Origin: a virus
Lineage: Duplodnaviria; Caudoviricetes
Direction: 5' to 3' (one strand)
Virus record (IMG/VR): IMGVR_UViG_3300029305_005443
Location: 79,915-143,914 of that record
DNA: 64,000 nt
Made by a program: the position numbers and the translations under genes. Below are positions 1 through 64,000 of this stretch, piece after piece. The notes beneath the pieces were generated by a model, which saw only the letters and a list, made by a program, of their open reading frames with translations, made no database searches and had not been told where the DNA came from. How positions within the stretch are numbered: the first letter of the stretch is position 1; each line of letters starts with the position of its first letter.

Positions 1-270
1 TACATTGATGCAGATGAGCTTATGGAACAGATGGAAAATGCTTGTATGGGGGTTATGAGTGGGTGCGACCCATTTAATTAGCCATTGAAAGTTCTTGAAT
101 CTGCCCCAACCGCCGATGTGGTAGAGCGTAAGAGGGGGAAGTGGGTCAGAAAAGAAATTCACTCGAACTGGAGCGATTGGACGGAATATACTTGCTCATT
201 ATGCGGGGCAACTTTTAAAGGGCTATATAAGGCGAACTTCTGTCCAAATTGTGGAGCAGAGATGGGATAA
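1..270 (+). CDS. Small Zn-ribbon paralogue (YIDAD..PTADV..GKW..CxxC..FCPNCGA), 5' partial, one TAG read as Gln
   Basis: Frame 1 is open from base 1 (YIDADELMEQ..) through TAG 79-81 into the track ORF 85-270; same module order as neighbouring paralogues. Confidence 0.8.
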
Positions 271-280
271 AGGAGAGAAG

Positions 281-616
281 ATGGCTGATTTGATGACATT
301 TCCTAATACTGTTGAAGAATTTATGGAGAAGTACAAAATTGTTGACAAGGAGCAAGTATATACAAACGGAGCAGAATTAGTCCCGATTTTCCGAATGAAA
401 CAATGGTTTGAGCATTTACCTACAGCAGATGTTAGGGAAAATATCCACGCTCATTGGGAAGATTGGTCTTTTTTAGGATGGGATATGGAAACCCATTGGC
501 GAAGAAGATGTTCTAATTGCCTTTGTGAGAGGGAGGACGATAATGAAGAAAAGGACACCCCGTTCTGCCCGAACTGCGGAGCGGAAATGACAGGGATGAG
601 AGGTGAACAAAATTGA
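281..616 (+). CDS. Small Zn-ribbon paralogue (PTADV..HAHW..CSNC..FCPNCGA)
   Basis: AGGAGAG RBS before ATG 281; two CxxC pairs. Confidence 0.8.
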   Translation: MADLMTFPNTVEEFMEKYKIVDKEQVYTNGAELVPIFRMKQWFEHLPTADVRENIHAHWEDWSFLGWDMETHWRRRCSNCLCEREDDNEEKDTPFCPNCGAEMTGMRGEQN

Positions 617-744
617 CAATATGGATTTACTCTTTTGATGACGGAACTGAACTTAAACTGATTGATGTGGGATTTTCCACGGCAGAGCTTTGGAAGTTAG
701 CAGAACTGCATGGCAAGTGTTCCATTTCGCACAAGCGGATATGA
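613..744 (+). CDS. Hypothetical 43-aa protein
   Basis: GAGGTG RBS, TTG start overlapping upstream stop, fills the gap. Confidence 0.55.
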   Translation: MTIWIYSFDDGTELKLIDVGFSTAELWKLAELHGKCSISHKRI

Positions 745-757
745 GAAGAGGAATAAG

Positions 758-1078
758 ATGCAGAGATATATAACAGTTGAGGATGCTCTAAATTCAATGT
801 GCGACAGTTGTGATGCTAAACACGCTATTTGCGCTCATTGTCCGTGTAAACACTATGAAGCCGTTGAGTGTACTCCTTCTGCCGATGTAAGAGAGAACAT
901 TCACGGAAGATGGATTGTTGATGAGGATGGGAACCTTGAATGTTCTGTGTGCGGGCATCATGGAGTTGGGGATCTGTATTGCGAACGATGCGGCGCACGA
1001 ATGGACGAATCTGAAGGACCGACAATGGAAGAATATATGTATGGACAAGAAGGGAGCGAAGAAGATGGGAGTTTGTGA
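758..1078 (+). CDS. Cys-rich small paralogue (RYI..PSADV..HGRW..CSVC..YCERCGA)
   Basis: GAGGA RBS before ATG 758; family motifs. Confidence 0.8.
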   Translation: MQRYITVEDALNSMCDSCDAKHAICAHCPCKHYEAVECTPSADVRENIHGRWIVDEDGNLECSVCGHHGVGDLYCERCGARMDESEGPTMEEYMYGQEGSEEDGSL

Positions 1079-1418
1079 CGATCTAATCAGCAGACAGGAG
1101 GCGGTTGCTTATGCTATTTCCGGCCTTACAAGGGAGATTGACGGTGAGAAATGGATAAGGGTGTCGGAAGTACGTGAAAGCATTAAGGCACTGCCGCCCG
1201 CACAGCAATGGATACCAGTAACGGAGCAGTTGCCGAAACTTGGCGAAAAGGTTTTGGTATCAACTAAAAATACTGTATTTACGCAAGTGTTTAAGCGTAT
1301 TTACGGCACACCCGATAGATGGGGGTGGGAGCATCACTCCGTCAAGAAGGTAACTGCTTGGATGCCACTTCCGAAGCCGTATAAGGAGGGCCTGGGCAAT
1401 GCCAACGAGATTGATTGA
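1065..1418 (+). CDS. DUF551-like protein (DLISRQ head + WIPVTEQLP..VTAWMPLPKPY)
   Basis: Characteristic DUF551 motifs WIPV.E.LP and AWMPLP. Confidence 0.8.
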   Translation: MGVCDDLISRQEAVAYAISGLTREIDGEKWIRVSEVRESIKALPPAQQWIPVTEQLPKLGEKVLVSTKNTVFTQVFKRIYGTPDRWGWEHHSVKKVTAWMPLPKPYKEGLGNANEID

Positions 1419-1575
1419 AGCATTAAAAGACAAGACAGCAGAAGAACAATGTGACTTCATAAGATGGCTTGTGCTTGATTATGCTATGTGTTTTACAGAC
1501 TCAAGAGAAGCAGTGATTGAATGGTTGAAGGAAAGGATCGAAGATGACGAGATTGGTGAGACACATCAAGGTTGA
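1399..1575 (+). CDS. Hypothetical 58-aa protein
   Basis: AAGGAGG RBS, ATG 1399, open to TGA 1573-1575. Confidence 0.6.
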   Translation: MPTRLIEALKDKTAEEQCDFIRWLVLDYAMCFTDSREAVIEWLKERIEDDEIGETHQG

Positions 1576-5884: not shown

Positions 5885-6052
5885 ATGTTTTATGTAACCG
5901 TTGGAAAATATGAGCCTTGTAATGTGGCACTTTACCCCACACTTAAAGAAGCCATTAAAGAGGCTCAGATTCTTGTTGAAGACCTCTACCTTGATTTTCA
6001 CAAAGAAACTGAGGTTCACGTGATTGATGCAGAGGGTCATATTGTTTGGTAA
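5885..6052 (+). CDS. Hypothetical 55-aa protein
   Basis: GAGGT RBS directly after the promoter. Confidence 0.7.
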   Translation: MFYVTVGKYEPCNVALYPTLKEAIKEAQILVEDLYLDFHKETEVHVIDAEGHIVW

Positions 6053-6069
6053 GAAAGGAAGTAACAAAA

Positions 6070-6990
6070 ATGTCAGCTTGTGTTGAGTCCATGTTTAGTG
6101 TAAGAGAAGTTCCATGGCACGGTCTTGGACAGATCGTGAGCACTGCTCCTTCTTCAGAAGATGCCCTTGTTTTAGCAGGATTGGATTGGGAAGTGTGCAG
6201 GAAACCTGTCATTGTTGACGGCAAAGAAGTTCCCGGATATGTGGCAAATGTGAGAGATATTGATGATAAAGTTTTGGGAATTGTTTCGGATAGATACAAG
6301 ATTGTTCAGAATAAGCAAGCATTTGATTTTACAGATTCTCTTATTGCAAGTGGAAATGTTGTTTATGAAACAGCTGGTAGCTTGAAAGATGGAAAGACTA
6401 TTTGGCTTCTTGCTAACCTTCCTGATACAAAGCTCGTTGGTGATGATGTGAAAACGTATATTTGTTTCACAAATTCTCACGATGGTAAGGGTGCAATTAG
6501 GGCAATGATGACCCCTGTTAGGGTTGTTTGCAATAACACTCTTAATTGTGCAATTAGTACTGCACAGAGAATGTGGTCAATGAAACATATGGGGGATATG
6601 GCTTCTAAACTTAGAGAAGCTCAAATGGCTCTTGGCCTTGCAGACACCTACATGAAAGAACTTAGTATTTCTGCAGATATTCTTGCAAAAAAGAAAATGT
6701 CAGATGCAGAAATTGAGTCTGCAATTATTAAATTATTCCCAATTACACCTGAAATGTCAGATAGACAGAAAACAACTGTGGGATTTTCTCGTGATGCATT
6801 TAAGATTTGTCTTAATAGAGATGATCTTGCAAATTTCAAGAACACAGCATGGGGATTTGTTAATGCTGCTTCAGATTTTGTTGGTCATTCTGCACCTGCA
6901 AGACTTACTGCAAATTATCAGTCAAATAATTGGGGTGCAATTATGAACGGTCATCCTATTTTTGACAAAGCATTTTCTTTGGTGTCTTGA
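6070..6990 (+). CDS. DUF932 family phage/plasmid protein
   Basis: Motifs MFSVREVPWHGLG, YETAGSL..GK.IWLLA, NSHDG, TPVRVVCNNTL; AAGGAAG RBS. Confidence 0.9.
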   Translation: MSACVESMFSVREVPWHGLGQIVSTAPSSEDALVLAGLDWEVCRKPVIVDGKEVPGYVANVRDIDDKVLGIVSDRYKIVQNKQAFDFTDSLIASGNVVYETAGSLKDGKTIWLLANLPDTKLVGDDVKTYICFTNSHDGKGAIRAMMTPVRVVCNNTLNCAISTAQRMWSMKHMGDMASKLREAQMALGLADTYMKELSISADILAKKKMSDAEIESAIIKLFPITPEMSDRQKTTVGFSRDAFKICLNRDDLANFKNTAWGFVNAASDFVGHSAPARLTANYQSNNWGAIMNGHPIFDKAFSLVS

Positions 6991-6991
6991 T

Positions 6992-7351
6992 ATGAATAAA
7001 AATTTCCACGATCTTTGTGTTAGAGATTTCATTGAAAAGTTTAAGAAATATTCTGGTGATGAAAAAGTACTAGAAGATTTATTTTCTTTTGGGTATTGTT
7101 ATCATTTCTCAATCATATTGAAAGACCTTTTTAATGGTTGTATAATGTATAATCCAGTAGAAAATCATTTTGCTACTAAAATTTATGTTGAAACTAGTTG
7201 GTATGCAAATAATGATGAAAAAGAATACAGATTATACGACATTACTGGAAGATTAGACCTTAATGATGAGTGGGTTGAGTGGACATCTTACGAAGAAGAA
7301 GAGCCTTTGGGCTCAGAAAGAATTAAGGAGCAGTGCCTTTATAAACTGTAA
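6992..7351 (+). CDS. Conserved phage hypothetical protein (FxxGYCYxF..YDITG)
   Basis: ORF track; motif. Confidence 0.75.
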   Translation: MNKNFHDLCVRDFIEKFKKYSGDEKVLEDLFSFGYCYHFSIILKDLFNGCIMYNPVENHFATKIYVETSWYANNDEKEYRLYDITGRLDLNDEWVEWTSYEEEEPLGSERIKEQCLYKL

Positions 7352-7364
7352 GGAAAGATAAGTT

Positions 7365-7838
7365 ATGAATGAATTTGAAATTATTACTTCTGAATTTATT
7401 CCATCAGTAAATGCATATAGTGGTGCGGCATATATTCTTCCTGATGGAAAATATATCAATGTCGTTAATCATGGGGACATCGATGAGTTTATTATGAACT
7501 CTGATGAGTATGATTCTGAAAATCATCTTGAGAACTATCATAACGGTATTATGGTAGATAAGTACAACTGTGTCAGGCTTAATGATGGGGGAAATTCCGT
7601 ATTTAAGAATGATGTGTATATTATGCTGCCAAAAGAAATTACAGATGAGCAGTTGTATTCCATTAAGTATTGGCTTGAAAAGTTTATTTTTGGAAATGTT
7701 CTTGTTGAAGAATCCAAGACTAATACAACTGCTACCTATGATTTAAGGGATAGAACCCCAAACTATGTTATAAACCGGATTAAGAGATACTATAACGGAA
7801 ATGGTCTCGTTGAACATAAGGAAAAAGATTATGAGTGA
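7365..7838 (+). CDS. Hypothetical protein (YILPDGK..H)
   Basis: AAGGA RBS. Confidence 0.75.
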   Translation: MNEFEIITSEFIPSVNAYSGAAYILPDGKYINVVNHGDIDEFIMNSDEYDSENHLENYHNGIMVDKYNCVRLNDGGNSVFKNDVYIMLPKEITDEQLYSIKYWLEKFIFGNVLVEESKTNTTATYDLRDRTPNYVINRIKRYYNGNGLVEHKEKDYE

Positions 7839-8127
7839 AGTAGAATTGGAAGAAAAAAGAGCAATTATTTATCTACCAGAAAATTCTGTGGAAGCAACTT
7901 TTTTGCTTAAAGTGTATGACTCAGAAAAAGAAGGCTTAATTGAAGTTAAAAAAACTCTTGGATTAAGTGACCTTCGCAGGGCTTTTGAAGACGCTGAGTA
8001 TAATTATATAGAAGATGATGATAAATTTGTCCTTACAGAAAAAGGAAGAGAATATGCAGAAGAGCTTAAGAAACGAGACAAGCTTTTCGATGAGTGTCTT
8101 AATCAGGTACCTTGGAAAAATATCTAA
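7831..8127 (+). CDS. Hypothetical protein
   Basis: AAGGA RBS before ATG 7831. Confidence 0.75.
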   Translation: MSEVELEEKRAIIYLPENSVEATFLLKVYDSEKEGLIEVKKTLGLSDLRRAFEDAEYNYIEDDDKFVLTEKGREYAEELKKRDKLFDECLNQVPWKNI

Positions 8128-8257
8128 TTTTAAACTATTATGTTAGAAATTATTAATTTCATAATTCATAGTGATTGCATTTATAGGGTGCATTATTTTA
8201 ATGTAAGTTATTGCAGATTGGATTTTTGAAAAAGTTAAAGAAAATATGGAATAATTG

Positions 8258-8286
8258 TTGACTTCTATTGCACTGCATTGTATAAT
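8258..8286 (+). promoter_or_regulatory. sigmaA-type promoter
   Basis: TTGACT-17nt-TATAAT. Confidence 0.75.
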
Positions 8287-8311
8287 AATAATTACAAAAG
8301 GAGGTATTATT

Positions 8312-8452
8312 ATGATTACATTGTTAATGAGTTTGGTCAACACTAACCCTTATAATGGTCCTATTTGGTTTGGGGCTATTTCTGATTTTTTCATTGTTCT
8401 AATGATAGTTTATATGTGCGTAATTAGTAGAAAGAATAAAAACAATGAATGA
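8312..8452 (+). CDS. Small membrane protein
   Basis: AAGGAGGT RBS; hydrophobic segment then basic tail. Confidence 0.7.
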   Translation: MITLLMSLVNTNPYNGPIWFGAISDFFIVLMIVYMCVISRKNKNNE

Positions 8453-8663
8453 TTGGGTACCTGTAAAAGCCTCCCTCCCTTTAGAAAATGGGGACTATTT
8501 GGTAACAGATGAAATTGTATTAGACAAATATTCATCTCTTCGTTCAATAAAAATAGCATATTATCATATTGAATTTGGGTGGCTTGTTCACGATGCAGAT
8601 AATTGTATAAAAGGTAAAGTTATAGCTTGGAAAGTTTTACCTACCGTTTACAATGGGGACTGA
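8445..8663 (+). CDS. DUF551-like protein
   Basis: WVPVKASLP..YLVT..VIAWK.LP. Confidence 0.75.
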   Translation: MNDWVPVKASLPLENGDYLVTDEIVLDKYSSLRSIKIAYYHIEFGWLVHDADNCIKGKVIAWKVLPTVYNGD

Positions 8664-8664
8664 T

Positions 8665-8877
8665 ATGTATTACGAAGAAGAAGTTGTAGAAGCAATTGAG
8701 GAGAGCTTTGTAAGGTATCTTGAGAAAAAAGGGGCCAGTGTTTGCAGAAATTGTAAATATTGGTACAGAAACTTAAAGGGTAGGGGAATTAGCCTTGATT
8801 GCCCTTGGAGAAACAGTGATGTGCCTAGGGCAATGGATTTTTGCAGTAGATGGGAATCAAAGGAGGAAAAAGAATGA
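8665..8877 (+). CDS. Small Cys-rich paralogue (CRNCKYW..C..DFCSRWE)
   Basis: Family motifs. Confidence 0.75.
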   Translation: MYYEEEVVEAIEESFVRYLEKKGASVCRNCKYWYRNLKGRGISLDCPWRNSDVPRAMDFCSRWESKEEKE

Positions 8878-9038
8878 TGACCAATGCTGACAGAATCCGA
8901 GCGATGACAGATGAAGAGTTTGCATCTTTTCTTGCATTGACCGAATTAAAACATTATATGCAAAGTGACATTACTGAAGAACTCGACAAAAGTTATGACA
9001 AATATATCAATTGGTTGAAAAAGGAGGCGAAAGAGTGA
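8874..9038 (+). CDS. Small protein (MTNADRIRAMTDEE family)
   Basis: AAGGAGG RBS; motif common in Firmicutes phages. Confidence 0.75.
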   Translation: MMTNADRIRAMTDEEFASFLALTELKHYMQSDITEELDKSYDKYINWLKKEAKE

Positions 9039-9193
9039 GACTTCTGCATATTGTATTTGAATATCGTGACGAGCACTCGGACGAAAATTGGAATAGGCAG
9101 GAATGCTATGTGTCGTCCGTTAAAGAGTGCAAAGACATTTACGGACTTGGTATCGACTGTGAATATAGAATCATCAGTGTTAAGCAGGTTTAA
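9035..9193 (+). CDS. Hypothetical small protein
   Basis: AAGGAGG RBS, GTG start. Confidence 0.65.
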   Translation: MRLLHIVFEYRDEHSDENWNRQECYVSSVKECKDIYGLGIDCEYRIISVKQV

Positions 9194-9258
9194 TTATGCA
9201 TGGTGATTAAAATCATAGTCCTATATTGATTTAATCGTGAATGATGAGGAGGAGGAAA

Positions 9259-10290
9259 ATGTCCATTAAAAATAAAATAATTTTATCCGTTGTTATTGTT
9301 GCACTTGTTGCAGGATTTATGCTTTCTGGTATTCTAATCGGAAGGTCCTGCTCAAATACAACAAGAGAACATCCAGATATTGAAATAGAAGAAACAACTG
9401 AAATCCCAACTGGTTCAGAATATGAAACTACCGAAGAGCCTACGACAGTATGGAGCGATGGAACAACTGAGGCAGACATTCCTGTTGAACCAGTAACCGG
9501 TATAATTGAGATTGACCCGTCTGCTGCAAAGACAATGTATACTATTACGAATGTGAATGTACGCATGGGCCCGAGCTTGGACGATATGATTGTTACAACT
9601 CTCTATACAGGAAAAGACATCCAAGTTTGCGAAATTGGAAATGATGAGTGGGCCATTGTAATCTTAGACGAGCAATACTATTACATCAATAAAAACTTTA
9701 TTTCTGATACTCCGCCCGCAACGGAACCACCTGCGACTATGGCGCCGACAGCTACCCCTACACAACCATCGGCGACACCGACACCTTCTACACCAGTCAA
9801 CAAAACAGATGCCTTCCATTATTATGGGATTTATACAAGTCAGTACTGGCATTTTACCCCTGAGCAGATCGACGCCCAGTGGGCCGGTTATAAAAGTTAT
9901 AAGCCCGCTCTGCCTAACGGCACAACTCGTGCTTGGCAAGCCTATTTGTATCAGAAATTAAGCGAGCGCGGTTATGGTTGGTGGTATACTTATGCGTGCG
10001 CACAAGCTATGCAAGAGTCTGGATTTAATCCGTTAGCTGATAATGGAGTTGATTATGGACTTTTCTCATTCCGTTTACGCTTTTGGGATAATTCCTATGG
10101 CAGTGTTTACGATTATAAAGCAAACATCAATGCCTATGTAGATCGGATTAGTAAACATCTTATTGGTGTAACAACCGATAGAGATATTTATATGGCTCTG
10201 TCGCAGCATTATCTGCCTGATGGACAGCTTCATATGAACTATGTTAATGCTGTGTTGGCGCGGCTTAACGAACTTTGGATTTGTGACTAA
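9259..10290 (+). CDS. Membrane-anchored SH3b + lysozyme/lytic-transglycosylase-like protein
   Basis: N-terminal TM, Glu/Thr linker, SH3b (VNVRMGPS..WAIV..YYINKNFIS), Pro/Thr linker, AQAMQESGFNP..YGLF. Confidence 0.7.
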   Translation: MSIKNKIILSVVIVALVAGFMLSGILIGRSCSNTTREHPDIEIEETTEIPTGSEYETTEEPTTVWSDGTTEADIPVEPVTGIIEIDPSAAKTMYTITNVNVRMGPSLDDMIVTTLYTGKDIQVCEIGNDEWAIVILDEQYYYINKNFISDTPPATEPPATMAPTATPTQPSATPTPSTPVNKTDAFHYYGIYTSQYWHFTPEQIDAQWAGYKSYKPALPNGTTRAWQAYLYQKLSERGYGWWYTYACAQAMQESGFNPLADNGVDYGLFSFRLRFWDNSYGSVYDYKANINAYVDRISKHLIGVTTDRDIYMALSQHYLPDGQLHMNYVNAVLARLNELWICD

Positions 10291-10291
10291 T

Positions 10292-10486
10292 ATGAAAATC
10301 AGTAAAGTCAACTTTGCAAGAGAATACGAGTTTGAACTTCCGTCTGCTGTGGAAGTTCCAGATGAGTTAATCAAGAAATATGAAGGTTACCCAAATGAAC
10401 TTTTGCTCTATGTTTTATGCAAACTCATTTGTGAAAAACCAGATGAATTATTAAAAAGGCTTACACCAAATGACAGTAGTGTGTGA
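10292..10486 (+). CDS. Hypothetical protein
   Basis: ATG 10292 right after the upstream stop. Confidence 0.65.
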   Translation: MKISKVNFAREYEFELPSAVEVPDELIKKYEGYPNELLLYVLCKLICEKPDELLKRLTPNDSSV

Positions 10487-10652
10487 TGTGCAATAGTGCA
10501 AATATAATCAAGCCGGAAAATTCTGTACGTGCGATATTCTAATGATGTACGGTGGAGTTTGTAGTAAATTAGTTGATAAGCAAGGAAGGCAAAGGCCGCC
10601 TTAGGAATGGGTAAATTTGAATTACTCTCCAAATCAAAATAAAGAAGAGTGA
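10470..10652 (+). CDS. Cys-motif protein (CDVQQCKYN..C.C..C, DUF1540-like), two TAGs read as Gln
   Basis: Absent from the ORF track; open under code 15 with TAG 10494 and 10602; fills the gap before the next promoter. Confidence 0.65.
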
Positions 10653-10667
10653 TTTCATAAAAATTAT

Positions 10668-10696
10668 TTGACAAATAAGGTTTATTGTTGTATTAT
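10668..10696 (+). promoter_or_regulatory. sigmaA-type promoter
   Basis: TTGACA-17nt-TATTAT. Confidence 0.7.
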
Positions 10697-10732
10697 AATT
10701 CACATGGGAAATAAAACAAAGGAGGATATAAA

Positions 10733-11071
10733 ATGTTCCCGTTGGAAAAATATAAGTATTATGTTGACGAAGAAGCCAGAACCGTTGTTGCTGTGCAAAC
10801 TTTTGCCAAAAAGAAGTACCGTGGCATTGCCAAGTGCTCAAAAGAAGATGTGTTTGATGTAGAAAAGGGAAAGAAAATTGCAGCGTTAAAGTGCAATAAG
10901 AAAATCACTCAGGCACGGTTTGATTATGCTAAACTCAGATATGATGCTATTAGTCACTTTATTGAATCTGCAAAGGAAGATTTTAAGAAGTGGAGTGATT
11001 ATCTGGTTATTTCTTATAAAGAGTATAATGAAGCTCTTGTAGAACTAGATAGAGTTTTGAAGGGTGAGTAA
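10733..11071 (+). CDS. Conserved phage protein (GIAKCSKEDVFDVEKGKKIA motif)
   Basis: AAGGAGG RBS; motif. Confidence 0.8.
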   Translation: MFPLEKYKYYVDEEARTVVAVQTFAKKKYRGIAKCSKEDVFDVEKGKKIAALKCNKKITQARFDYAKLRYDAISHFIESAKEDFKKWSDYLVISYKEYNEALVELDRVLKGE

Positions 11072-11073
11072 TT

Positions 11074-11496
11074 ATGTCTTGCATTAAGCTCAAAGTTAAA
11101 GACAAATCAATTTATTTTGGTGAAAATTCAGGGTTTTTTGGGTCAACTAGAATTCCAGGTAATATTATGGACAGATTAAATACTAATATTGAGAAAGAAA
11201 ATAATAACCATATTATAACTATTAATTTGTGTGATGATTATGGAATTATTGATGAATATATTAATCCATCGAGTGAAACTTTTAACTTGAGCTATGATAC
11301 ATTAATCTCCATCCTTAATCACATTGGCCAAGTTCTTTATGCACCTTTTAAACACCTTAATTCAAAAACAAGTTCAATTTCAGAAGAAATTAATTTGATT
11401 AGAAACATTAGAACTAATTTTAACATTTTATCTTGGTTAGTTAAATATTTTGAACTTAATAAAAATGATGAAGTAAATATTACATATAATTGTTGA
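11074..11496 (+). CDS. Hypothetical protein
   Basis: ORF track. Confidence 0.65.
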   Translation: MSCIKLKVKDKSIYFGENSGFFGSTRIPGNIMDRLNTNIEKENNNHIITINLCDDYGIIDEYINPSSETFNLSYDTLISILNHIGQVLYAPFKHLNSKTSSISEEINLIRNIRTNFNILSWLVKYFELNKNDEVNITYNC

Positions 11497-11521
11497 CAAA
11501 GCATAAATTATGTAATATAAT
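11493..11521 (+). promoter_or_regulatory. Consensus sigmaA promoter upstream of the suppressor tRNA / RNA ligase unit
   Basis: TTGACA-17nt-TATAAT. Confidence 0.8.
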
Positions 11522-11547
11522 AAAATTATAAATTAATGGGAATTTAG

Positions 11548-11718: not shown

Positions 11719-11834
11719 CCTCCTTTCTCAAAGATGCCCAAAAGAAATTTAACCAAGCATTTTCTCTGCTAAATTAAAAATTCATTTTTTGTTCCTTCTT
11801 GTCCTGCAGTTCTTTGTGCTTGTTTACATAATAT

Positions 11835-53264: not shown

Positions 53265-53276
53265 TGAGGTAAGTGA

Positions 53277-54602
53277 ATGGCAACAGCAAGATTAATTCCT
53301 AGTACTTATTCGCTTTCGAACAGCTCACTAACTGTTACTGATGCAGATAATTTTTATTCAAACACTGATAGTACCTCGTACGGTCGAGTTAGTACTACAT
53401 CAACTTCATCACGCTATATTTACTTAAAAGGATTTAATTTTGGTGCAATTCCTTCTAATGCAGTTGTAAATTCATTTACAGTAAAATATAAAGCGTATGA
53501 AACAACACTTTCAACTTCATCATCATACTACCCTAGATTATGTAATAATACTACAACAATTACAGGTACAGCGAGTGGCGCACTTACAACAAGTGTCAAA
53601 ACTTTTTCATTTACCGGTGTTACAGCTGATTGGGCAACAATTTCTGGATATGGTAGTAACTTTGCAGTTCGTTTTACCGTAAGACGTTCAGGTAACTCAG
53701 GAACTGGTTATCTCTATTTGTATGGCGTTGAAATTGAAGTAAATTATACTGTTCCGGTTTACCACAATGTTACAGTTAGCAATAGCACTACTGCCACCGT
53801 AACAGCAAATCCATCCTCTGTTCTTGAAGGTGAGTCTTGTACTGTCATATCTGATACCCTCACAGGAATATCAGTAACAGATAATGGAACTGATGTAACA
53901 AATTAGTTCGTATTGCACAGCGGCACAAATGGAGATTATTCCATAGAATAGAGGGGAAGTTATGGCTTTACTCTTAATACAGGCACTGGATATTATGTAA
54001 GTGATAATAAAGGTGTAGATAAATCGTGTGCAGTTTGTAGGATAAGTTTTAGTTTACCTGTGTCTGCAACAGTAACTTTTCAATATATAAACTATGCAGA
54101 AGCTACATATGACTTTGGTGTATTTGGTAATGTTGATGTAGCATTATCTACTAACTATTATCCAGCTGGGAGTGGCGGTGCCACAATTTCAGAAACAAGT
54201 TATAAAAAGGCTTGTAATACTAGTTCTGATAATACTTCATCTGTTTAGACATTAACTTATTCAAATGTATCGGCTGGAAATCATTTTATTGATGTTAAAT
54301 ACTCAAAAGATGATGCTTCAGCTGCGAATAATGATACTTTATAGTTTAAAGTTACAATAACTTATAGTTAGTCAGTATCTTATTATTCATATACTATTTC
54401 TAATGTCACAACTGACCATGCTATTGTAGTTACTTCTTCTTCCGGTACCCCAAAACTTTGGTACAAATAGAATGGAACTTGGGTTGAAGTGAGTAAAGTT
54501 TATAGTAGAGGGTCTTCATCCTGGGTATAGGTTCTTGACTTTTCATCCACTTTTAATACCTCATATAATTATGTTAATCCTGATGAGCTACCCAATCAGT
54601 AA
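53277..54602 (+). CDS. Ser/Thr-rich beta-sandwich virion protein, 7 TAGs
   Basis: GAGGT RBS; single open frame to TAA 54600. Confidence 0.8.
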
Positions 54603-54614
54603 TAAAGGAAAAAG

Positions 54615-56123
54615 ATGGGAACAGCAAAAGTAGTTTTCAATAAAAGAGTTCTAACAGATGTTACTATAGACACAGTAGAAGAAACATCACTTCAAGGTGG
54701 CTCTTCCGCTCTTAACTCAGAAGGCAATTTAATAGAAGGTACTGCTCAAGAAGATCACGAAAATGATATTATTGAAGGAACCCTTGGAGGAAAGTATATA
54801 AATAGTAACATAGATTATGTTGGTAATAGTGCTTTTGCTTAGGTAGCTTCAAATCAAAATTCAGAGCTGTAGATCCAACTTCCAAATGTAACCAAAGTAG
54901 ATTAGTATTCTTTTTATAATTGTACTCATTTAACTAGTGTTGATCTACCAGATGCAAAAGAATTGTATGTGAGTGCTTTTGAGGCTTGCCCAAACCTTTC
55001 TTCTATAAATATTCCAAAAGTAATTGGTGTTGCCGGTACTTGTTTTATGAATGACACTAGCTTGACAACTATTGAATGGCCAGACCTTTTAACTGTAGCC
55101 CCTGTTCCAGGCCAGTGGAATTCCTGCTCCGTTTTTAGGGGGTGTACTAATTTAACTTATGTTAGTTTGCCTAAATGTTCTTGGCTTGAAGCCAGAGCTG
55201 CTTTGTTTTATGGCTGCACTAATTTATCTTCTGTGAATATGCCTATGTTGGTTCTTCTTTCTGGTAATCAAGTTTTTGATGGTTGTAAAAATCTTCAAGG
55301 TCTTGTTTTTCCTATTTATGGAATAACCCCGTGGATAACAGACACCTCTGCAGCAATTCGATATTTATGCTTTTATAATTGCACAAATTTTTCTTATCTT
55401 GATGTAAACAGGCCTACTTCAATAGAATCCAGAGTTTTTGAAGGATGTAATGCTTTTGAAACATTAGTTATAAGAGGGGATGTTGTTGCTTCTTTGAGTA
55501 GCATAGATGCTTTCAAAAATACTAAATTTGCTGAAAACGGTTCCGGTGGAACTTTATACGTTCGTTCCGATTTGGTAAGTAGTTATCAGTCTTCTTCTAA
55601 TTGGTCTACTATTTTAGCTTATACAAATAATAGTATTAAAGCAATAGAAGGAAGTTATTATGAAACTCATTATGCAGATGGAAGGCTTATTTCTGAAGTT
55701 GTTATTCCATACCCTGACCTTATTTCTTTGAATGGTTTTTGGGATTATGGAGAATATGGAACAGTATAGGTTACCAACAACAATCACGTAAAAGTAACTT
55801 CTTTAAAGGGAAGAACTGGTTGGCAGTTGAGGGTAAGAAAGACAGATAACTCACCAATTTTTAATTGGCCGTACTGGTCTAGGGTGATTGCAGCGCATCC
55901 TAATCAATCAGATTTGAGTAGCAGTGAGGCAGTTGCTTTCTTTGATAAAGACGACAATGTAATATGGCAGTATGTTCAATGGTATAGTGGTACACCAGGC
56001 CCTGGACAAACAAATACAGGTTAGACTTCTTGTGTGGACATATATTCAATTGCATTCTAGTTAAATTCTGGTGTATCTGAATTTGACCTTGAAATTCTTT
56101 TAAATGATATTAGAATAATATGA
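54615..56123 (+). CDS. BspA-type LRR virion protein 2, 6 TAGs
   Basis: F.GCTNL..V.LP LRRs; GGTLYV..NWSTIL..IKAIEGSYYETHYADG cap. Confidence 0.82.
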
Positions 56124-57868
56124 CTAAATTTGCTAAAGTTCTTGTAAATGCATCTCCCTATATTGATTTAACGGATAAAACTGTTACACCATCCACTTTA
56201 AAAATGGGTTCCACAGCTCATAAAGCAAATGGTGAAGAAATTGTCGGAACAACAGTATTTACAGACCCAAAAGTAGAAAATGAAATAATTACTAGAACAA
56301 TTTCTGGCACTTATTCTAATAGTGAGGTAACTCAATTAAAATATGGCGCATTTAGAGTATGCAGTTCTTTAACTTCTGTAGATTTTCCTAATGTCTCTAT
56401 AGTTGGTTCTTATGCATTTGCTGGTTGCTCTTCTTTATCATCTGTTTCATTTCCTAATGCTACTTCCATTGGAAGTTGTGCTTTTTGGTCTTGCACCTCA
56501 TTGTCTCAAGCGACTTTCTCAAAAGTATCTATTGTTAATGTATCTGCCTTCAACGATTGTTCTGGTCTCGTATCAATTTCTCTACCAGAGGCGACATGGC
56601 TTTCTAATCAAGCATTTATAAGATGCTATAATCTTGAAACTGTTTATGCACCCAAAACAAAAAACATTGATAATGAGTGTTTCTAGCAATGCAGTAAACT
56701 TCATGGCCCAAATTTTATGCAAGCTTCTAGAATAGGTCTTAGAACTTTTAAGCAAGCAAGTGTGGGGGGTCTCTCTTGCGATCCTTTAACTATTGGAGAT
56801 AATGCATTTCAGGAAGCAACTTATTACGGGATAAGTATATTTCATAATACTTATATTGTTTCTGGTGGTTGGGCTTTTTCTGGAGCTATAACTACCAGTA
56901 GGTCAACCACTGTCAGCAAAATTGCCTTCCCAGCTTTAGAGTAGTTTTAGGGTGGTGGTGCCCTTGCTTACAATGATAATTTATATGGTTTTGATGCAGG
57001 TAATTTAACCTCTGTAAGATAGAGTACTTTCCTATCTTCTCCTAATGTTAGCGAAATAGTTTTAAGAAAACCTAATACTATAACTACTCTTGAAAACGTT
57101 AATGCCTTTAACAGTTCCCCATTTGCTAGTGGTGGTACTGGTGGTACAATTTATGTACCTTCAAAATTCCTATCAACCTACTCTACTGCTACTAACTGGG
57201 CAACTGTAACTGGTTATGGAACCATCAACTGGCAACCCATTGAAAGTTCTCCATATTCCAATAAGTATATTAATGGGGATGATATAGATATTTATACCTA
57301 TGTTAATCCTGATGGTTCTATGAAGAGCACTTACACTTGGGATTATGAGTGGGATTATACAGATGGGTTGCTTTCCTAGAATGGATGGACTCTCGAAAAG
57401 AGCAACTCATCCGCCCCAAAAGAGACCCTTATTTCAGACGGTGTAGAGCTCAAAGCAGGCGGACAAGGCCTTCAAATTTGGATGAATAAGACAGATTTCA
57501 CCCCAACTATAGGCCTCATGGAAGTCAAAATGTATATCACCAATTTGGACGGAAATTTTAATAATAGAATTAGACTGTCCAATGGAACAACTGGAATTCA
57601 AGTTTATTAGAATAATGCCATTTGGAGATTTTTAACTTCGACTTCTATAGGCGGTGGTGTTAGTTTAGGGACAGCTGCAGCAATCAATGCTCCATATGTA
57701 GTAAGAATTCTCCTAATGGAAAATGGTTTTGGTTATGTTTGGATAAATGGGGATTATACAGGAACAATTATACAATCCGCAATAAGAGAGTGTACTAAAA
57801 CTTCAGTCGGTAGTTGGGGGTCCAATGTTGGTGTATATCAATATATAAAGCTCAAATCTTTCAGCTAA
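56120..57868 (+). CDS. BspA-type LRR virion protein 3 with C-terminal lectin-like domain, 6 TAGs
   Basis: AF..CSSL.SV.FPN LRRs; GGTIYVP..NW cap; open to TAA 57866. Confidence 0.82.
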
Positions 57869-57886
57869 TAATACAAAGGAGAAATA

Positions 57887-58129
57887 ATGGCAATTGTAAC
57901 AGAATTGTACGAAATAAATGGAAGATCTTTCACTAAGACTTATTCTGATTCTCATCGCTATGTAGTTAGAGAAGGAATATCATACTCAGAAGCTAATGAC
58001 CCAACAGAATTTGGAAGAACCTATACAGAGGGTGATTTAATAGAAGAAGAAGCTTCTAATGATGAACTTGTTCAGGAAAATAGAGAGATGAAAGAAATTC
58101 TTAATGTTCTTTTGGGGGATGAATCGTAA
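57887..58129 (+). CDS. Small tail-associated protein (TYSD..YSEANDP..TYTE)
   Basis: AAGGAG RBS. Confidence 0.75.
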   Translation: MAIVTELYEINGRSFTKTYSDSHRYVVREGISYSEANDPTEFGRTYTEGDLIEEEASNDELVQENREMKEILNVLLGDES

Positions 58130-58569
58130 TGTTTGATGGATTGAGTAGGGAAGAAATTTTACAAAAAGTAAGATTATTGAGGCATATGATAGAAGAAGCA
58201 TCTGTCTTTCTTTCAGATACGGATGCCCTTTCCGTACCAGAACTTTATCCTAAGTGGAGAGCTGGTGTGACTTACACTCTTGATGCAGAAAGATCCGTTA
58301 GAGTAAGATATAATGGGCTTCTTTACAGGCTTGAACAAACTCATACAAGTCAAGAAGGATGGGAACCAGATATTACACCAGCTCTTTGGACACGGGTTGC
58401 AGAACCTGGCGAAATTCCAGTTTGGGTACAACCGACTGGTGCTCAAGATGCTTATATGACTGGTGATAAAGTTCATTATCCAACAGCAGAAGATCCAATT
58501 TATGTTTGTACTTCTGATTACAATGTTTATGCACCTGGTGTCTTTGGTTGGGAATTATTTGAAGGATAA
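58129..58569 (+). CDS. CBM5/12-like carbohydrate-binding domain protein
   Basis: W.AGVTY..VRYNG.LY..HTSQ..W.P..PALW; WVQPTGAQDAY..GDKV. Confidence 0.8.
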   Translation: MFDGLSREEILQKVRLLRHMIEEASVFLSDTDALSVPELYPKWRAGVTYTLDAERSVRVRYNGLLYRLEQTHTSQEGWEPDITPALWTRVAEPGEIPVWVQPTGAQDAYMTGDKVHYPTAEDPIYVCTSDYNVYAPGVFGWELFEG

Positions 58570-58571
58570 TT

Positions 58572-59318
58572 ATGGATTACTCTAAAATCTTTGATGCAAA
58601 ATATTATTGTGATAAAGAAAGGGATGAGTATGAGTATGAAAGCTCTACTGGTTCCATCTCCATTACAAAAAAGAAAGTTAAGAATGTCAATGTCTATATG
58701 GCACATCTGACATTCAAAAAGTTCGATAGATTTAAAACTTATTATCATTCTACAGCTACTATTTCAAAAGCTGCTCAAAATACTGGAGCTATATTCTGTG
58801 TGAATAGCAGTGCAGCTAAAGTTAATGGTGGTGGTGAGATGCACAATGGAGTTATCCCAGATTTTTCAGCAGAAAAATACTGTACTCCTGCATTATATAG
58901 TTAGAAGACTGGTATGATAATTCCTGGATTTGGAGGTCCTTATAACAATATGAAGTTGAAGGACATTAAAGAACAAGGAATTGCTACTGATACATTTGGA
59001 TTTGGGGCTGCTTTCTTACAGAACGGGAATATTATAGGAACTAATGGTGGTTCAAGAAGACCAAGAACTTTTATTGGCACAAACGGAAATGCAGGTGATA
59101 TTTGGATTTGTGTTTCTGAGGGTGACGGAGTTAATGGGGGTGGTTCTGGTTTAACTGGTTATGAGTGCGCAGAAGTACTTAAGGGGCTTGGCTGCACATT
59201 AGGTTACCCGTTAGATGGTGGCGGCTCTTCATCAATGGTATTTTAGAATCAGTTGATAAACACTCCTACCGGGGGTAAAGAGAGGAGTGGAATAGGAGAT
59301 TTCATCTACTTTATTTGA
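58572..59318 (+). CDS. Phosphodiester glycosidase (NAGPA/DUF2233-like), 2 TAGs
   Basis: RRPRTFIG, GLT..E.A..L..LGC, LDGGGSSSMVF. Confidence 0.82.
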
Positions 59319-59476
59319 GTCTACAACTGACTCTGCTTCTGAATATCCCCAGTATACTATAGAGATGTAATTGTATATAATAAAGAAATTCCTTAATTTA
59401 TTGATTTTAGCACATAAATTAGTAACAAAATATAATGTAAGTATAAGTATTATCTTATTCTTAAAGGGAGAAAAAT

Positions 59477-60364
59477 ATGTTGCTTTTGGTCGAAGCTGCT
59501 CATGATGAAAACGGAAAGCTTAGTTATGGACAGCCAGGAGATCAGACTGGTGACGAGGTGAGATTGAGAGAAGTAAGTGATAAGGAATCTTTCACTTACT
59601 ATTTTCGCTGTCCCGACAAAACTGCTGCAAAAGCTATGGCAAAAGATGCCATTGATGTAGCAGGAAATAACCATGTTGGTTATGCACAATATGGGGCAAA
59701 CAATCTTAGTTCTAGATATGGCTTATATTATGCAATGAAAACATTTTCTGGAAAAGCTGATTTTTCCAAATTGACTATTTATTGCAATGTAGATTGTTCT
59801 GCTTTAATTTCTGATTTATTAAATAACAATGGTTATAAGGCGAGTGTTTATATGAGCACTAGTTCAGAAGTGAACTAGCTTATTAATCTTGGTTTTGTAA
59901 AACAAGTGTATAATAAAGATAAATTGGAAGTTGGGGACATATTGTGGAGGCAAGGCCATACCGCAATTGTTGTCAGTAAAAGTGACGATGTGGGAACAGA
60001 GGAAGATATAATGTTTAGTAAATTGCTTACAAGTTCTAGTTAGGAAAAGAAATGGTCAACCGGTGCTGGACCTTTAACAAGAAAAATGGCTTATGTTACT
60101 GTTTCAAAAAAAGATCTTGGGTTCAAACAAGGTCAAGTTCCTGGTATGATTGTTGTTCAACAAAAAGGTGAAATTCTTTCTTTATCGCAGTGGATTCGTG
60201 CTTAGTCTCAAGGTTTCTTATTTGTGAGTGATAAAGAAACTACTGCAACCTCTGGTATTCCAGTTGGAACTGCTGAAGGATTTTTTAATCCGGATGCGGA
60301 TACAATTTTAATTCCTGTTAGATTTCCAAATTAGAAATATCACGTTATGATTCTTCCATTTTAA
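59477..60364 (+). CDS. NlpC/P60-CHAP-like endolysin, 4 TAGs
   Basis: DENG..GQPGDQTG.EV, GYAQ, DCSAL (Cys) and GDIL..GHTAIVV (His) on either side of TAG 59876. Confidence 0.85.
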
Positions 60365-60376
60365 TAAGGAGATGTA

Positions 60377-61462
60377 ATGGCAAAATCTTGGTTTCAAGTT
60401 GTAAAGGATGCGGTTCAAATGTATAAGGACCGTGACAATTACGCTTATTTTTATGGTGCAAAAGGTCAAAGACTTACCAAAAATGTCATGGACGCTCTTT
60501 GGGCTGCAGAACCAGAATATTTCAAAAAATACAATGCTGAAGAAAAAGCTCAGATTTATAAGAATTCCCTTAACAAGATCGGTCTTGACTGTTCAGGGTT
60601 TGTGACGAGAGTTACAGGCGAAACCGGCTATTCAATTAGTATTTATAACAAGAGGACAAAAGAAACTTCTCTTGCAGATGGTGTTGCAGGTCAATTTTTA
60701 TTTACTACTTTTGGTGGTTCAGGCCGTCATATTGGTATTGATGCAGGTCTTGGTTTTGCTCTTGACATGGGAAATGAGTCAACTGATTATATGGTTTCAG
60801 TTCATCGTGACTCAGTAAGACTTACAAATATTGGTCAAACTGCTTGGGAACATTCTTTCCAAACTGCAGCTGTTAATTATAATGGTGCTTATGCATTTGA
60901 CCCAAATGGCGATGCACAACCACATCCTGGTGATACTGTTGAACCCGACCCAATTCTTCCGGATATTCCAGATCCAGACGATGAAGTTGTTCTTCCAAAA
61001 GCAGTTCAAGCTACAACTATTATGTATGTTCGTTCTGGTCCTGGGGCAGATTACTCAAGGGTCACATTTGATAGGAACGATGGTAAGGGAGCCAGAAATA
61101 TTCTTGCACAAGGCGAAGTTGCTGAAGTCATTGGAATGAATGGTGATTGGTATCAACTTCAAATTACAGGCGCCTCTCAAGTTTGGCGTCCATATGCAAG
61201 TTCTGAATATCTCAATCCAGTTGAATTTTCAGAAAAGATTGGAACTGCTACAACCAAGTTGAATGTTAGAACTGGTCCAGGTTCTGCTTATTCACTTTGC
61301 AAATTTGATAGAAACGATGGAAAAGGCATTAGAAATACTTTGGAAAAAGGTGAGTCTGCAAGAGTCATTACTGAAAGTAATGGTTGGTGCCAGCTTGAAA
61401 TCGTCGGTGAAGTGTATGTTTGGAGACCATGGGCCTCTAAAAAGTACCTTACTGTGGTATAA
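60377..61462 (+). CDS. NlpC/P60-like peptidoglycan hydrolase with two SH3b domains (no TAG)
   Basis: YFYGAKG, LDCSGFV, HIGI; VRSGPG and LNVRTGPG SH3b repeats. Confidence 0.87.
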   Translation: MAKSWFQVVKDAVQMYKDRDNYAYFYGAKGQRLTKNVMDALWAAEPEYFKKYNAEEKAQIYKNSLNKIGLDCSGFVTRVTGETGYSISIYNKRTKETSLADGVAGQFLFTTFGGSGRHIGIDAGLGFALDMGNESTDYMVSVHRDSVRLTNIGQTAWEHSFQTAAVNYNGAYAFDPNGDAQPHPGDTVEPDPILPDIPDPDDEVVLPKAVQATTIMYVRSGPGADYSRVTFDRNDGKGARNILAQGEVAEVIGMNGDWYQLQITGASQVWRPYASSEYLNPVEFSEKIGTATTKLNVRTGPGSAYSLCKFDRNDGKGIRNTLEKGESARVITESNGWCQLEIVGEVYVWRPWASKKYLTVV

Positions 61463-61517
61463 GTAACTATAAATAATATTGTATATATAATATAAATATA
61501 TATATATAAATTTATAT

Positions 61518-61543
61518 AGAGGGGAATATCGCTATTCCCCTCT
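61518..61543. promoter_or_regulatory. Perfect hairpin upstream of the head protease gene
   Basis: AGAGGGGAATA-TCGC-TATTCCCCTCT with no U tail, just after a TTGTATATAT motif. Confidence 0.5.
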
Positions 61544-61590
61544 CAAGGCTCAATAATTTGGTGCATATATAGCACGAGGAATAATAAATA

Positions 61591-63126
61591 ATGCTAGAAA
61601 GTATTCAAAATAATACATTTGAATATGAGAAACTTTCACAAGAAGAGCAGCAAAAAAGAGGCATTCTTGGTAGATTAAAAGGTATTATTGCCGACTATAA
61701 GAATCCAACCAGGAATGGCAGATTGTACGGTCAAAAGTTGTGGGACAAACTGTTTGAAGATCCAATCACTAAAGAAAAGATTGAAAACAGATGTATGTTC
61801 GGTGAAATTGAACACCCACTTACAGACAGGGCTGCTATAGACCCAGAAAAGATTGCTGTTTGCCTTGCAGAAGTTCCAAAGAAAGATTCAAAAGGTCATT
61901 TAGTTGGTATTTTTGATATTCTTAACACTCCTTGTGGAAAGATATTAAAAACACTTCTTGACTATGGAACTACAGTTGGTGTTTCTAGTAGGGGACAAGG
62001 TGATACTTTTACTAATTATGATGGCATAGAAGAAGTTGACCCTGAAACTTATGAATGTACTGGTTGGGATGTTGTTCTCACCCCTGCAGTTAAAGAAGCA
62101 AGAATGAGCTTTGTTACAGAATCAGTTGGTAACAAAACATTAAAAGCCGCTTTAACAGAATCCCTTAATAGTTCAACTGAAACTGACCAGAAAATAATGC
62201 TTGAAGAACTTGATAATTTGGGCATAAAGTTATAGGAAGAAAAATCATCCCAAGAGGGTGTTAATATAGATGCAACAATTGAACCCGAAAAAGCCGACAA
62301 TGACGGAAGTTCGTTAGTAGAGGAATTGCAAACCGCATTAGCAGAGATTCAAAAGTTAGAAACAAAGGTAAGTACTCTTCAAGAGAAATTATCTGTTTGC
62401 TATGCAAAAGAATATGATTACGAAGATGAAATCAATGGTTATAAGAAAACCATTTCAAAGCTTACTGAATCCGTTAAGACTTTAGATCCTCTTAAAAAGC
62501 GGGTGGAATCACTGACAGAAGAATTGAATAGTAAAACTAAAGTATTAGTTGATTCTGACAAAACTGTTAAAGGGCAAGAACAAAAATTAAAGTCCTTAAA
62601 GAAAGAAGCCAGTTTATTAACTGAAAATTTATCTGATAGTAGAAAATTGGTTGAGAATCTTCAAAGTCAATTGGAAAAGAGCAAAAAAGAAGCCTCTTTT
62701 GCTTCTTCTCAATATGAGAAAGAAATAAAAGATCTTAATGAATAGCTTATTGCTTCTAAAAAAGATTCCACTATAAACAATAAAAAATACTCAGATAAAT
62801 TAGAAAGAGCAAATAAACTTGTTGAAAAATACAAAGCAATTGCTAAGGCTTCTGTTAATCGTTATATTGAGTCTCAAGCAATTAAACTTGGTGTTGATGC
62901 AAAAGATATTAAGTCAAGATTAAATGAGAGCTATACTTTCGATGATATTGATAGAATTTGTGAAGACATTCAGGAATATAGGCTCGGGCTCAACAACCTC
63001 CCTTTTAGAGGAGGGTTTAATCCAAACTCAAAAATGAAGATAAAAGAATCAATTGATACCACAGTCCCTCTTAATGAGGATGATATGATAGATGATACTT
63101 TATTGAGTGTTGTCGGATTAAAATAA
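61591..63126 (+). CDS. Prohead core protease (T4 gp21-like) fused to coiled-coil scaffold (511 aa), 2 TAGs
   Basis: NPTRNGRLY, FGEIEHP, ILNTPCGKILK, GVSSRGQG, WDVVLTPAV; heptad coil after TAG 62233. Confidence 0.9.
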
Positions 63127-63150
63127 TAAAAATAAAAGGATATAAATAGA

Positions 63151-63447
63151 ATGGCTACAAAGAATCTTGTCGAAGCTTACAAGAATCGTATCAATGTTGC
63201 TGATGCTTATCATGCTCAGACACACAATGGTCAAAAGATGGATTCTTACAAGAAGCTTCTCATTGCTAACTCTCTTAACAATGTTTCTCGTTTTATGAAC
63301 GAGGCTTTTGAGCAATCTGCTGGTACACAACGCGCTGCCCTCGGCGATTATAAGCGTTTCTGCCTTACACTTACCACTCTTGCTCTTCCAAATATGATTG
63401 CTCCAGAAATCGTGCTTACAGTCCCAATGGCTTCAAGAACAGGATAT
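63151..63447 (+). CDS. Major capsid protein (T4 gp23-like), exon 1
   Basis: Follows protease/scaffold; LPNMIAPEIVLTVPMASRTGY resembles gp23 PNLIA..VQPM..PTG; interrupted by intron. Confidence 0.85.
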
Positions 63448-64000
63448 AAAATGTAATGTATCCCTAATATGGTAACATATTAGAAAATAACCTTGTTAAT
63501 TGCTGGAAACTCCGAAAGGACAATCAGCAGCCAAGCCCCAAAACTGGGGAAGGTTCAACGACTATCGAAAGCATAGCATTGAAGAAATATCAATGTGAAG
63601 AAGTGAGTAGAGTAGGGGTTCGCTCCGAAAGACAAGGCATCCAATAAAGGTTAAAACAATGTTGGATGATAATATAGTCTGAACATTATAGAAATATAGT
63701 GAGTTTGGCATTACTAATGAATAGCCTACTTCTGCATCCATAAGTGCAGATTTTATCCAAATCAATTCAATCTTTTATGGAGGATTATATGACAAAAGAA
63801 TAGAAGTGTTCTGAATCGCAATTAGGAAGAGTTGTGATCCACAAGGGTGACTTTGAAAAAAGGGTGCTTCCTTAGGAATTAGATACATATTTCTCTAATG
63901 GATGGTTGACGGGTGTCTCAGAAAAACATCGTAAAAGTAGGTCTAATAGGAAGGGAAGTTGCAATGGAAAAAACAAAATCTTCAAAGAAGATGTCATTAA
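63448..64000 (+). mobile_element. Group I self-splicing intron (3' end beyond window)
   Basis: P1 GGATAT/GTATCC with U.G splice pair; P AATTGCTGGAAAC, Q AATCAGCAG, R GTTCAACGACTA, S AATATAGTCT; P3 CCTTGTT/GACAAGG; P8 CATCCAATA/TGTTGGATG. Confidence 0.92.
63789..64000 (+). CDS. Intron-encoded putative homing endonuclease, 3' partial, 2 TAGs
   Basis: GGAGG RBS; MTKE[TAG]KCSESQLGRVVIHKGDFEKRVLP[TAG]ELDTYFSNGW resembles NUMOD-type DNA-binding modules; nuclease domain not in window. Confidence 0.65.

Follow-up and report, generated by a model that had tools for sequence, protein, structure and literature searches.

Predicted reassignment of TAG to glutamine in a 144-kb phage and an anticodon-like variable arm in its suppressor tRNA

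Gene content of the window and of the phage genome

The window, as we call the whole 64,000-nucleotide (nt) stretch analyzed here, is the final 64 kb (79915-143914) of IMG/VR record IMGVR_UViG_3300029305_005443, a single 143,914-bp contig of a phage of the Caudoviricetes with a G+C content of 35% and a completeness rating of 94%. It contains an array of tRNA genes headed by an amber suppressor tRNA(CUA), followed by a block of structural genes in which large terminase, portal, protease, and fiber genes all carry in-frame TAG codons. On the sequence evidence presented below, the phage very probably uses genetic code 15, with TAG read as glutamine (Gln) and TAA and TGA as stops. Support for the TAG-to-Gln assignment comes mainly from the codons of relatives, a catalytic Gln position, and the phage-encoded tRNA(CUA). 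Gene functions were assigned by PHROG and Pfam scans, and the genome falls into four modules (Table 1).

Table 1. Modules of the genome and features of the window (window positions unless marked as genome; aa, amino acids; HSP, high-scoring segment pair; LRR, leucine-rich repeat)
Feature	Position	Strand	Size and in-frame TAG	Basis
Structural genes: major head protein, tail sheath, large tail proteins	genome 1-39 kb			
Replication genes: helicase, DnaB, PolA-type polymerase, sliding clamp, UvsX, clamp loader, SbcCD	genome 39.3-67.8 kb			
Mixed module: NrdD, 13 tRNA genes, RNA ligase, DUF2828/DUF7788 protein	genome 67.8-99.4 kb			
Second structural block: fibers, large terminase, T4-type portal, papain-like peptidase, BspA-type LRR proteins, prohead protease	genome 99.5-143.9 kb (window 19.6-64 kb)			
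TAG-free block around the tRNA genes	6046-16996 (~11 kb)	+	9 genes of at least 100 aa; 2,269 codons; 0 TAG	
Amber suppressor tRNA(CUA)	11835-11922	+	88 nt	ARAGORN; Rfam tRNA model, 50.8 bits; minimum-free-energy cloverleaf plus extra arm
Eleven further tRNA genes: Ile-UAU, Arg, Ser (2), Ala, Leu (2), Pro, Asn, Thr, Gln-UUG	11928-17353	+		
Tail fiber protein	31162-33924	+	920 aa; 11 TAG	PHROG
Protein with no assigned family	33939-36368	+	809 aa; 10 TAG	
Large terminase	37055-39112	+	685 aa; TAG at residues 219, 511, 645, 652	PHROG terminase families; full-length (1-685) matches in relatives
T4-type portal	39123-41024	+	633 aa; TAG at residues 210, 287, 327, 351, 389, 450	Pfam Portal_T4, E=5.9e-43
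Papain-family cysteine peptidase	41527-42372	+	TAG at residues 50, 54	Pfam Peptidase_C1; alignment to 3ois and cathepsin B
Five paralogous fiber-like genes	50250-57868	+	31 TAG in total	
Prohead protease	61591-63126	+	511 aa; 2 TAG	PHROG 207; aligned in 47 HSPs

TAG is very probably read as a sense codon

We found 97 in-frame TAGs spread over 31 of the 57 plus-strand window genes of at least 100 aa. Code 11 therefore breaks more than half of the larger genes, and catalogues built with it misread the terminase, portal, protease, and fibers. Reading TAG as sense raised the share of the window covered by open reading frames (ORFs) of at least 200 aa from 0.385 to 0.682. In the late part (19600-64000), the cover by ORFs of at least 150 aa was 0.59 with code 11, 0.65 with code 4, and 0.92 with code 15. 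The comparison of coding density proposed in the initial annotation was equally clear for the whole genome: a greedy gene call gave 237 genes with a mean of 164 aa and a cover of 0.81 under code 11, and 178 genes with a mean of 254 aa and a cover of 0.94 under code 15.

Genes of at least 100 aa in the genome contain 225 in-frame TAGs, distributed roughly evenly along their length, and the homology of terminase and portal runs on past each TAG. The code-15 genes end with TAA (85 cases) or TGA (58 cases), and no internal TGA or TAA was present in the window's terminase and portal alignments, so that both codons appear still to act as stops. The six TAGs singled out earlier (positions 5770, 26529, 40470, 51465, 51687, and 52650) are all in frame within their genes. 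The motif pairs quoted with them were also all recovered, namely ADxTIA/ADQTIA (with a third copy, ADRTIA), AGSxVTTPSGY/AGSQVTTPSGY, GNxMLS/GGQMLS, WExIG/WEQIG, and TEEKx/TEEKQ.

TAG corresponds to glutamine in related phages

We fetched 48 related loci from IMG/VR via the terminase (45 to 72% identity), compared the window proteins, with X at each TAG, to the DNA of these relatives by tblastn, and read the codons of the subject. Since the codons were taken from DNA, the resulting Gln signal is not a product of code-15 translation by others. Among 535 TAG-facing cells, 213 contained a Gln codon (CAA, 160; CAG, 53), with Trp in 1, Tyr in 2, and Leu in 13. Several positions were nearly or fully invariant: Gln was present at portal residue 351 in 47/47 relatives, at portal residue 450 in 44/44, and at terminase residue 511 in 46/48, with lower values at portal residue 389 (35/47) and terminase residue 219 (28/46). 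Residue 450 is the TAG at 40470 that follows KRI, a position rightly described as a conserved Gln in the initial annotation.

We then computed log-likelihoods for each amino acid with a substitution table derived from the same alignments, every site being counted once. Gln ranked first: its lead was 8.5 nats with 13 sites and 10 nats with 17 sites, once genes from elsewhere in the genome were included, and Ser lay 10 to 12 nats below Gln. The rate at which a per-site caller returned Gln was 48.7% for true CAA/CAG codons, 2.8% for non-Gln codons, and 41% for TAG (7 of the 17 sites); the TAG rate differs from the non-Gln rate (P=2e-7) and is compatible with the true-Gln rate (P=0.35). The expected enrichment of Gln in homologue columns at TAG is thus borne out. 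In the reverse direction, the TAGs of two recoded relatives faced a Gln of the window proteins in 13/33 cells.

Two functional positions point the same way. TAG residue 54 of the papain-like peptidase, within KNxG...SC, aligns with the Gln of the D-Q-G motif in 3ois and cathepsin B, as anticipated for the oxyanion Gln, and the one TAG of NrdD is opposite a Gln of Thermotoga NrdD. The TAG of UvsX falls within an insertion relative to RecA and was uninformative. A search of IMG/VR for relatives of the 809-aa protein returned none, so the majority of the fiber-gene TAGs lie outside this homologue check.

TAG is enriched in structural genes and absent around the tRNA genes

In-frame TAG was present in all four modules, in line with the claim that recoding is genome-wide. 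The enrichment in late genes also held, with 6.7 TAG per 1,000 codons in the two structural blocks versus 1.9 in the replication block (odds ratio, 3.5; P=9e-9), and TAG accounts for 15 to 19% of the Gln codons in structural genes. Among the replication genes, TAG is found in those for helicase (2), UvsX (1), and NrdD (1). Were TAG as frequent there as in the replication genes, the 2,269 codons of the block around the tRNA genes would lack it with a probability of 0.013; with the frequency of the late genes, this probability falls to 2.5e-7. This block, whose products include DUF932, RNA ligase, and DUF2828/DUF7788 proteins, can be read, as judged from its codons, under the standard code of the host. 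In a model published for recoded phages, expression of the suppressor and of the standard-code genes precedes that of the TAG-rich late genes (bioRxiv 10.1101/2021.08.26.457843); the late-gene enrichment together with the TAG-free block matches that model.

The gene for the major head protein (genome 1058-2197, outside the window) contains no TAG, unlike the neighboring genes, as though the recoded codon were avoided in the late gene with the highest expression.

The suppressor tRNA has a Gln-type anticodon loop in its variable region

The tRNA(CUA) that heads the 12-gene array is the sole CUA tRNA in the 143.9-kb genome, and a genuine tRNA-Gln(UUG) is located in the same array (17280-17353). 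We searched the genome (94% complete) for release-factor domains and for glutaminyl- or glutamyl-tRNA synthetase (GlnRS or GluRS) domains and found neither, so that charging and termination must depend on the host.

The body of the suppressor has U1.U72, G73, C2-G71, C3-G70, a C27.U43 mismatch, and a D stem starting with G, and by itself it might suggest a tRNA for Ser, Leu, Tyr, or Trp. The identity set of Escherichia coli GlnRS comprises a weak 1:72 pair, G73, G2-C71, G3-C70, G10, U35, and G36. From this set, which may not be that of the host, the suppressor has the weak or open 1:72 pair, G73, G10, and U35. Its variable region is 21 nt long and contains a hairpin with a 7-nt loop, TTTTGAT, in which the Gln anticodon UUG is central; equivalents of U35-G36 are present only in this loop.

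The anticodon stem (11860-11876) keeps four pairs owing to the C27.U43 mismatch; 4-bp anticodon stems are tied to stop-codon reading in a 2026 paper (PMC13092985). Two TAG-free genes lie amid the tRNA array, one for an RNA ligase (12096-13325; RNA_ligase and PHA02142 OB fold) and one for a DUF2828/DUF7788 protein with a vWA-like part (15341-16996). The pair may constitute a module for tRNA repair or RNA handling.

Spare anticodon-like arms are present in two classes of suppressor tRNAs

A scan of IMG/VR for the anticodon stem-loop yielded 106 CUA tRNAs, 39 of which were at least 83 nt long, representing 34 distinct long sequences. In 27 of these 34, a class I-type body like that of the window tRNA is combined with a 2- to 4-bp stem and a 7-nt loop in the variable region. 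The other seven (L051, L097, L106, L107, L109, L113, and L115) are class II-like: their D arm and variable arm are of the Leu, Ser, or Tyr type, and a Gln-type loop is absent. Possibly these tRNAs suppress amber codons with a residue other than Gln.

We counted loops and stems in the 27 tRNAs plus that of the window, anchored on the loop. The loop was CTCTGAA in 15 cases and CTTTGAA in 4, the rest being single variants. Its central triplet was CTG (21) or TTG (7), the two Gln anticodons, and the positions equivalent to U35 and G36 were invariant. For comparison, genuine phage tRNA-Gln in the same loci have the anticodon loops CTTTGAC, CTTTGAA, and CTCTGAA. The stem covaries: the second pair is C-G in 15 cases, G-C in 9, and U-A in 3, and the third pair is U-A in 12, C-G in 4, G-C in 4, A-U in 1, and U-G in 1. 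The spare-arm loop thus stays conserved while the stem and the acceptor, D, and T arms vary and covary. The variable-arm helix was absent from RNAalifold output on a MAFFT alignment of the long CUA tRNAs, in which the arm was misaligned by 1 to 2 columns.

A scan of IMG/VR for a matching arm in opal suppressors gave 35 distinct long UCA tRNAs (loci L193 to L311). A variable-region hairpin of 4 to 7 bp (2 bp in one case) with a 7-nt loop centered on CCA, the Trp anticodon, was found in 22 of them, and the loop was CTCCAAA in 12 of these 22. Most of the remaining long UCA tRNAs resemble ordinary tRNA-Sec.

That two suppressor classes should each bear the sense anticodon of the inserted residue is hard to reconcile with chance or with a mere relic. 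GlnRS and tryptophanyl-tRNA synthetase both use the anticodon as a main identity mark, so the simplest reading is that the arm serves the host synthetase as a handle. We therefore propose, tentatively and at somewhat less than even confidence, that these stop-codon suppressors may keep their identity through a second, non-decoding arm bearing the cognate sense anticodon, which would allow the host synthetase to go on charging them. The specific form of the proposal, with CUG/UUG for Gln in amber suppressors and CCA for Trp in opal suppressors, is put forward with the same caution. The spare arm is dispensable for code 15, since the TAG-recoded relative L035 has a short, 71-nt CUA tRNA without it. 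The literature that we searched contained no description of an anticodon-like variable arm in suppressor tRNAs; this arm is the part of our analysis that goes beyond the published record searched, the recoding itself being already known.

Codes differ within one terminase family

Of the 30 related loci of at least 12 kb, 25 use the standard code, 2 are TAG-recoded (L035 and L041), and 3 are TGA-recoded (L022, L028, and L037); for loci below 12 kb, the code was judged solely by the absence of in-frame stops. The in-frame TGAs of the TGA-recoded loci and of L029 face a Trp of the window proteins in 19/23 cells. We built a terminase tree with FastTree, rooted at the midpoint and excluding rows that covered less than 80% of the terminase. 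The window phage groups with the standard-code locus L001 (support, 1.0) and then with the standard-code locus L020 (0.998). Locus L041 (TAG) has L022 (TGA) as its sister, and the partner of L037 (TGA) is the standard-code locus L042, both pairs having a support of 1.0. On the tree, each recoded lineage (three with TAG and three with TGA) branches separately, so recoding was gained, or lost, repeatedly within one family. Unless it was lost, the terminase family would have switched at least three times to TAG=Gln and at least three times to TGA=Trp.

We detected no CUA tRNA among the tRNAs recovered from five standard-code relatives. The records of the TGA-recoded relatives are fragments without tRNA arrays, in which their own suppressors cannot be read. 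The sister locus L001 has a G+C content of 49%, versus 36% for the window.

In the GenBank phage collection, all 343 terminase matches were below 60% identity. Those listed had 29 to 40% identity and included Bacillus phages HSE3 and SP-15 as well as Maribacter and Rhizobium phages (each under 40%). By this measure, the lineage is not close to cultured phages.

Other features of the genome

About 20 kb of sequence (41527-61462), with the papain-like peptidase, the fiber-like paralogues, and a BspA-type LRR protein, separates the portal region from the prohead protease. In the relatives, the prohead protease and a small gene behind it directly adjoin the portal region, and the block looks like a host-recognition block that was inserted or expanded. 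The first 6,000 nt of the window contain short gene calls on both strands, weakly supported whichever code is used, and have the lowest cover of the genome (0.76 to 0.89 with code 15). Outside the window, a 272-codon ORF (genome 67752-68570) without a PHROG match contains 11 in-frame TAGs and so exceeds every other gene of the genome in TAG density; either the gene is very heavily recoded or the frame was called wrongly.

Discussion

We propose the following scheme. The suppressor tRNA would be produced from the 11-kb TAG-free block while the host reads the standard code, and host GlnRS, or a host Gln-charging pathway such as GatCAB, would load it with Gln. The variable-region hairpin would offer a normal Gln anticodon loop and so help the charging enzyme accept a tRNA that lacks G36 in its decoding anticodon. 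Once charged, the suppressor would outcompete host release factor 1. The TAG-rich virion genes would be fully made only after the suppressor has accumulated, and the replication genes would rely far less on it.

Several points weigh against parts of this scheme. The role in timing is inferred from the distribution of codons. At 6 of the 17 TAG sites, the relatives mostly have Ser, Thr, Lys, or Glu; these six columns are variable, and genuine Gln codons show the same behavior. The anticodon arm of the suppressor is one base from a typical tRNA-Trp arm, and C2-G71, C3-G70, A36, and the long variable arm depart from the GlnRS set of E. coli. The window hairpin itself is weak, with two G-C pairs followed by an A.G mismatch. 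In known complexes of class I synthetases, the variable region of the tRNA faces the solvent, away from the enzyme, so a direct contact with the spare arm is not obvious; one speculative possibility is that the anticodon position can be taken up by stacking of either hairpin. The internal repeats had been taken as evidence for Gln. The motif pairs exist, but they are the favorable examples: in BLASTP comparisons among the window proteins, TAG faced Gln in only 3 of 61 non-gap cells and Ser in 15. Ser makes up 14% of the residues in these alignments and identity is low, and we consider the internal paralogues uninformative as a test of the code.

The alternative that fares best accepts the recoding but gives it no role in timing or regulation. 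After a suppressor was gained, CAG would have drifted to TAG wherever expression allowed, and the arm would be left over from a duplicated anticodon arm, without a function in charging. The TAGs of helicase, UvsX, and NrdD fit this view, as do the armless suppressor of L035 and the TAG-free major head gene, expected if highly expressed genes shun a slow codon. We nonetheless consider it unlikely, because the 3.5-fold late enrichment and the TAG-free tRNA block agree with the published timing model, the spare-arm loop is conserved amid varying stem, acceptor, D, and T arms, and a separate suppressor class bears the matching Trp anticodon.

It is far less probable that TAG encodes another amino acid, be it Ser, Leu, or Tyr, suggested by the class II-like long arm, or Trp, suggested by the anticodon arm. 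The 21-nt variable region, the Trp-like anticodon arm, and the non-Gln acceptor stem could be read this way, and Ser is the most frequent partner of TAG among the internal paralogues. That frequency, however, arises in an already Ser-rich background, and against the relatives Ser falls well below Gln in likelihood, while Trp, Tyr, and Leu hardly occur opposite TAG. TAG also occupies three invariant Gln columns and the papain oxyanion Gln, and the extra arm has a Gln anticodon loop, unlike the arms of Ser, Leu, or Tyr tRNAs. Moreover, su7, a tRNA-Trp with a CUA anticodon, inserts Gln in E. coli. That TAG is a true stop and the phage defective, through pseudogenes, split genes, or assembly errors, would account for the fragmented genes under code 11 but has a negligible probability, since the interruptions are solely TAG and never TAA or TGA, the 225 in-frame TAGs are evenly spread, homology is unbroken across all terminase and portal TAGs, a cognate suppressor is encoded, and two relatives independently show the same pattern.

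This lineage is a useful object of study, since standard-code, TAG=Gln, and TGA=Trp phages occur together in one terminase family. If the reading of the spare arm is true, it would explain how suppressors are charged without a phage synthetase, a question open in the recoding literature. The Gln-type arm and its Trp counterpart offer a concrete idea of how a host synthetase serves a new code, and the arm may supply a natural design for orthogonal suppressor tRNAs.

Comparison with known systems

Code 15 has been described in gut and rumen phages, including Lak, crAss-like phages, and the clades of Borges et al. (bioRxiv 10.1101/2021.08.26.457843), with proteomic proof in crAss-like phages (PMC9523058) and a further case in phAss-1 (PMC10607447). 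The window phage resembles these phages in that TAG stands at Gln positions of its terminase, portal, and tail genes and is enriched in structural genes, that it encodes a tRNA(CUA) and no Gln-charging enzyme, and that its close relatives use the standard code. It differs in lineage, having a 144-kb genome that encodes a T4-type portal, tail sheath, PolA, DnaB, UvsX, and NrdD; some Lak and Agate phages have release factor 2, whereas the window phage does not. The initial comparison with Lak and crAss-like phages applies to the code and probably not to kinship: in a search that was not aimed at these groups, no Lak or crAss record was among the terminase matches listed (30 of 343), and the portal is of the T4 type. 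The phage may belong to a named clade of Borges et al., such as Agate, in which standard, TGA, and TAG codes are all found. Every sequence-level test of the code that we applied points to code 15, here in what appears to be a new lineage.

Amber suppressors of E. coli include supE, a tRNA-Gln with CUA, and su7, which is charged with Gln. The phage tRNA shares with them a CUA anticodon with U35, G73, a weak 1:72 pair, an anticodon arm that differs by one base from that of tRNA-Trp, and, by our assignment, Gln at UAG. Only the phage tRNA has C2-G71/C3-G70 and a variable-region hairpin with UUG (CUG in relatives), whereas supE and su7 are point mutants with a normal variable loop of 4 to 5 nt. 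With class II tRNAs and allo-tRNAs, which have long variable arms (PMC5389517), it has in common a total length of 88 to 95 nt and a base-paired variable arm; it departs from them in its class I body, in the predicted insertion of Gln rather than Ser, Leu, or Tyr, and in the 7-nt anticodon-type loop that displays the cognate sense anticodon.

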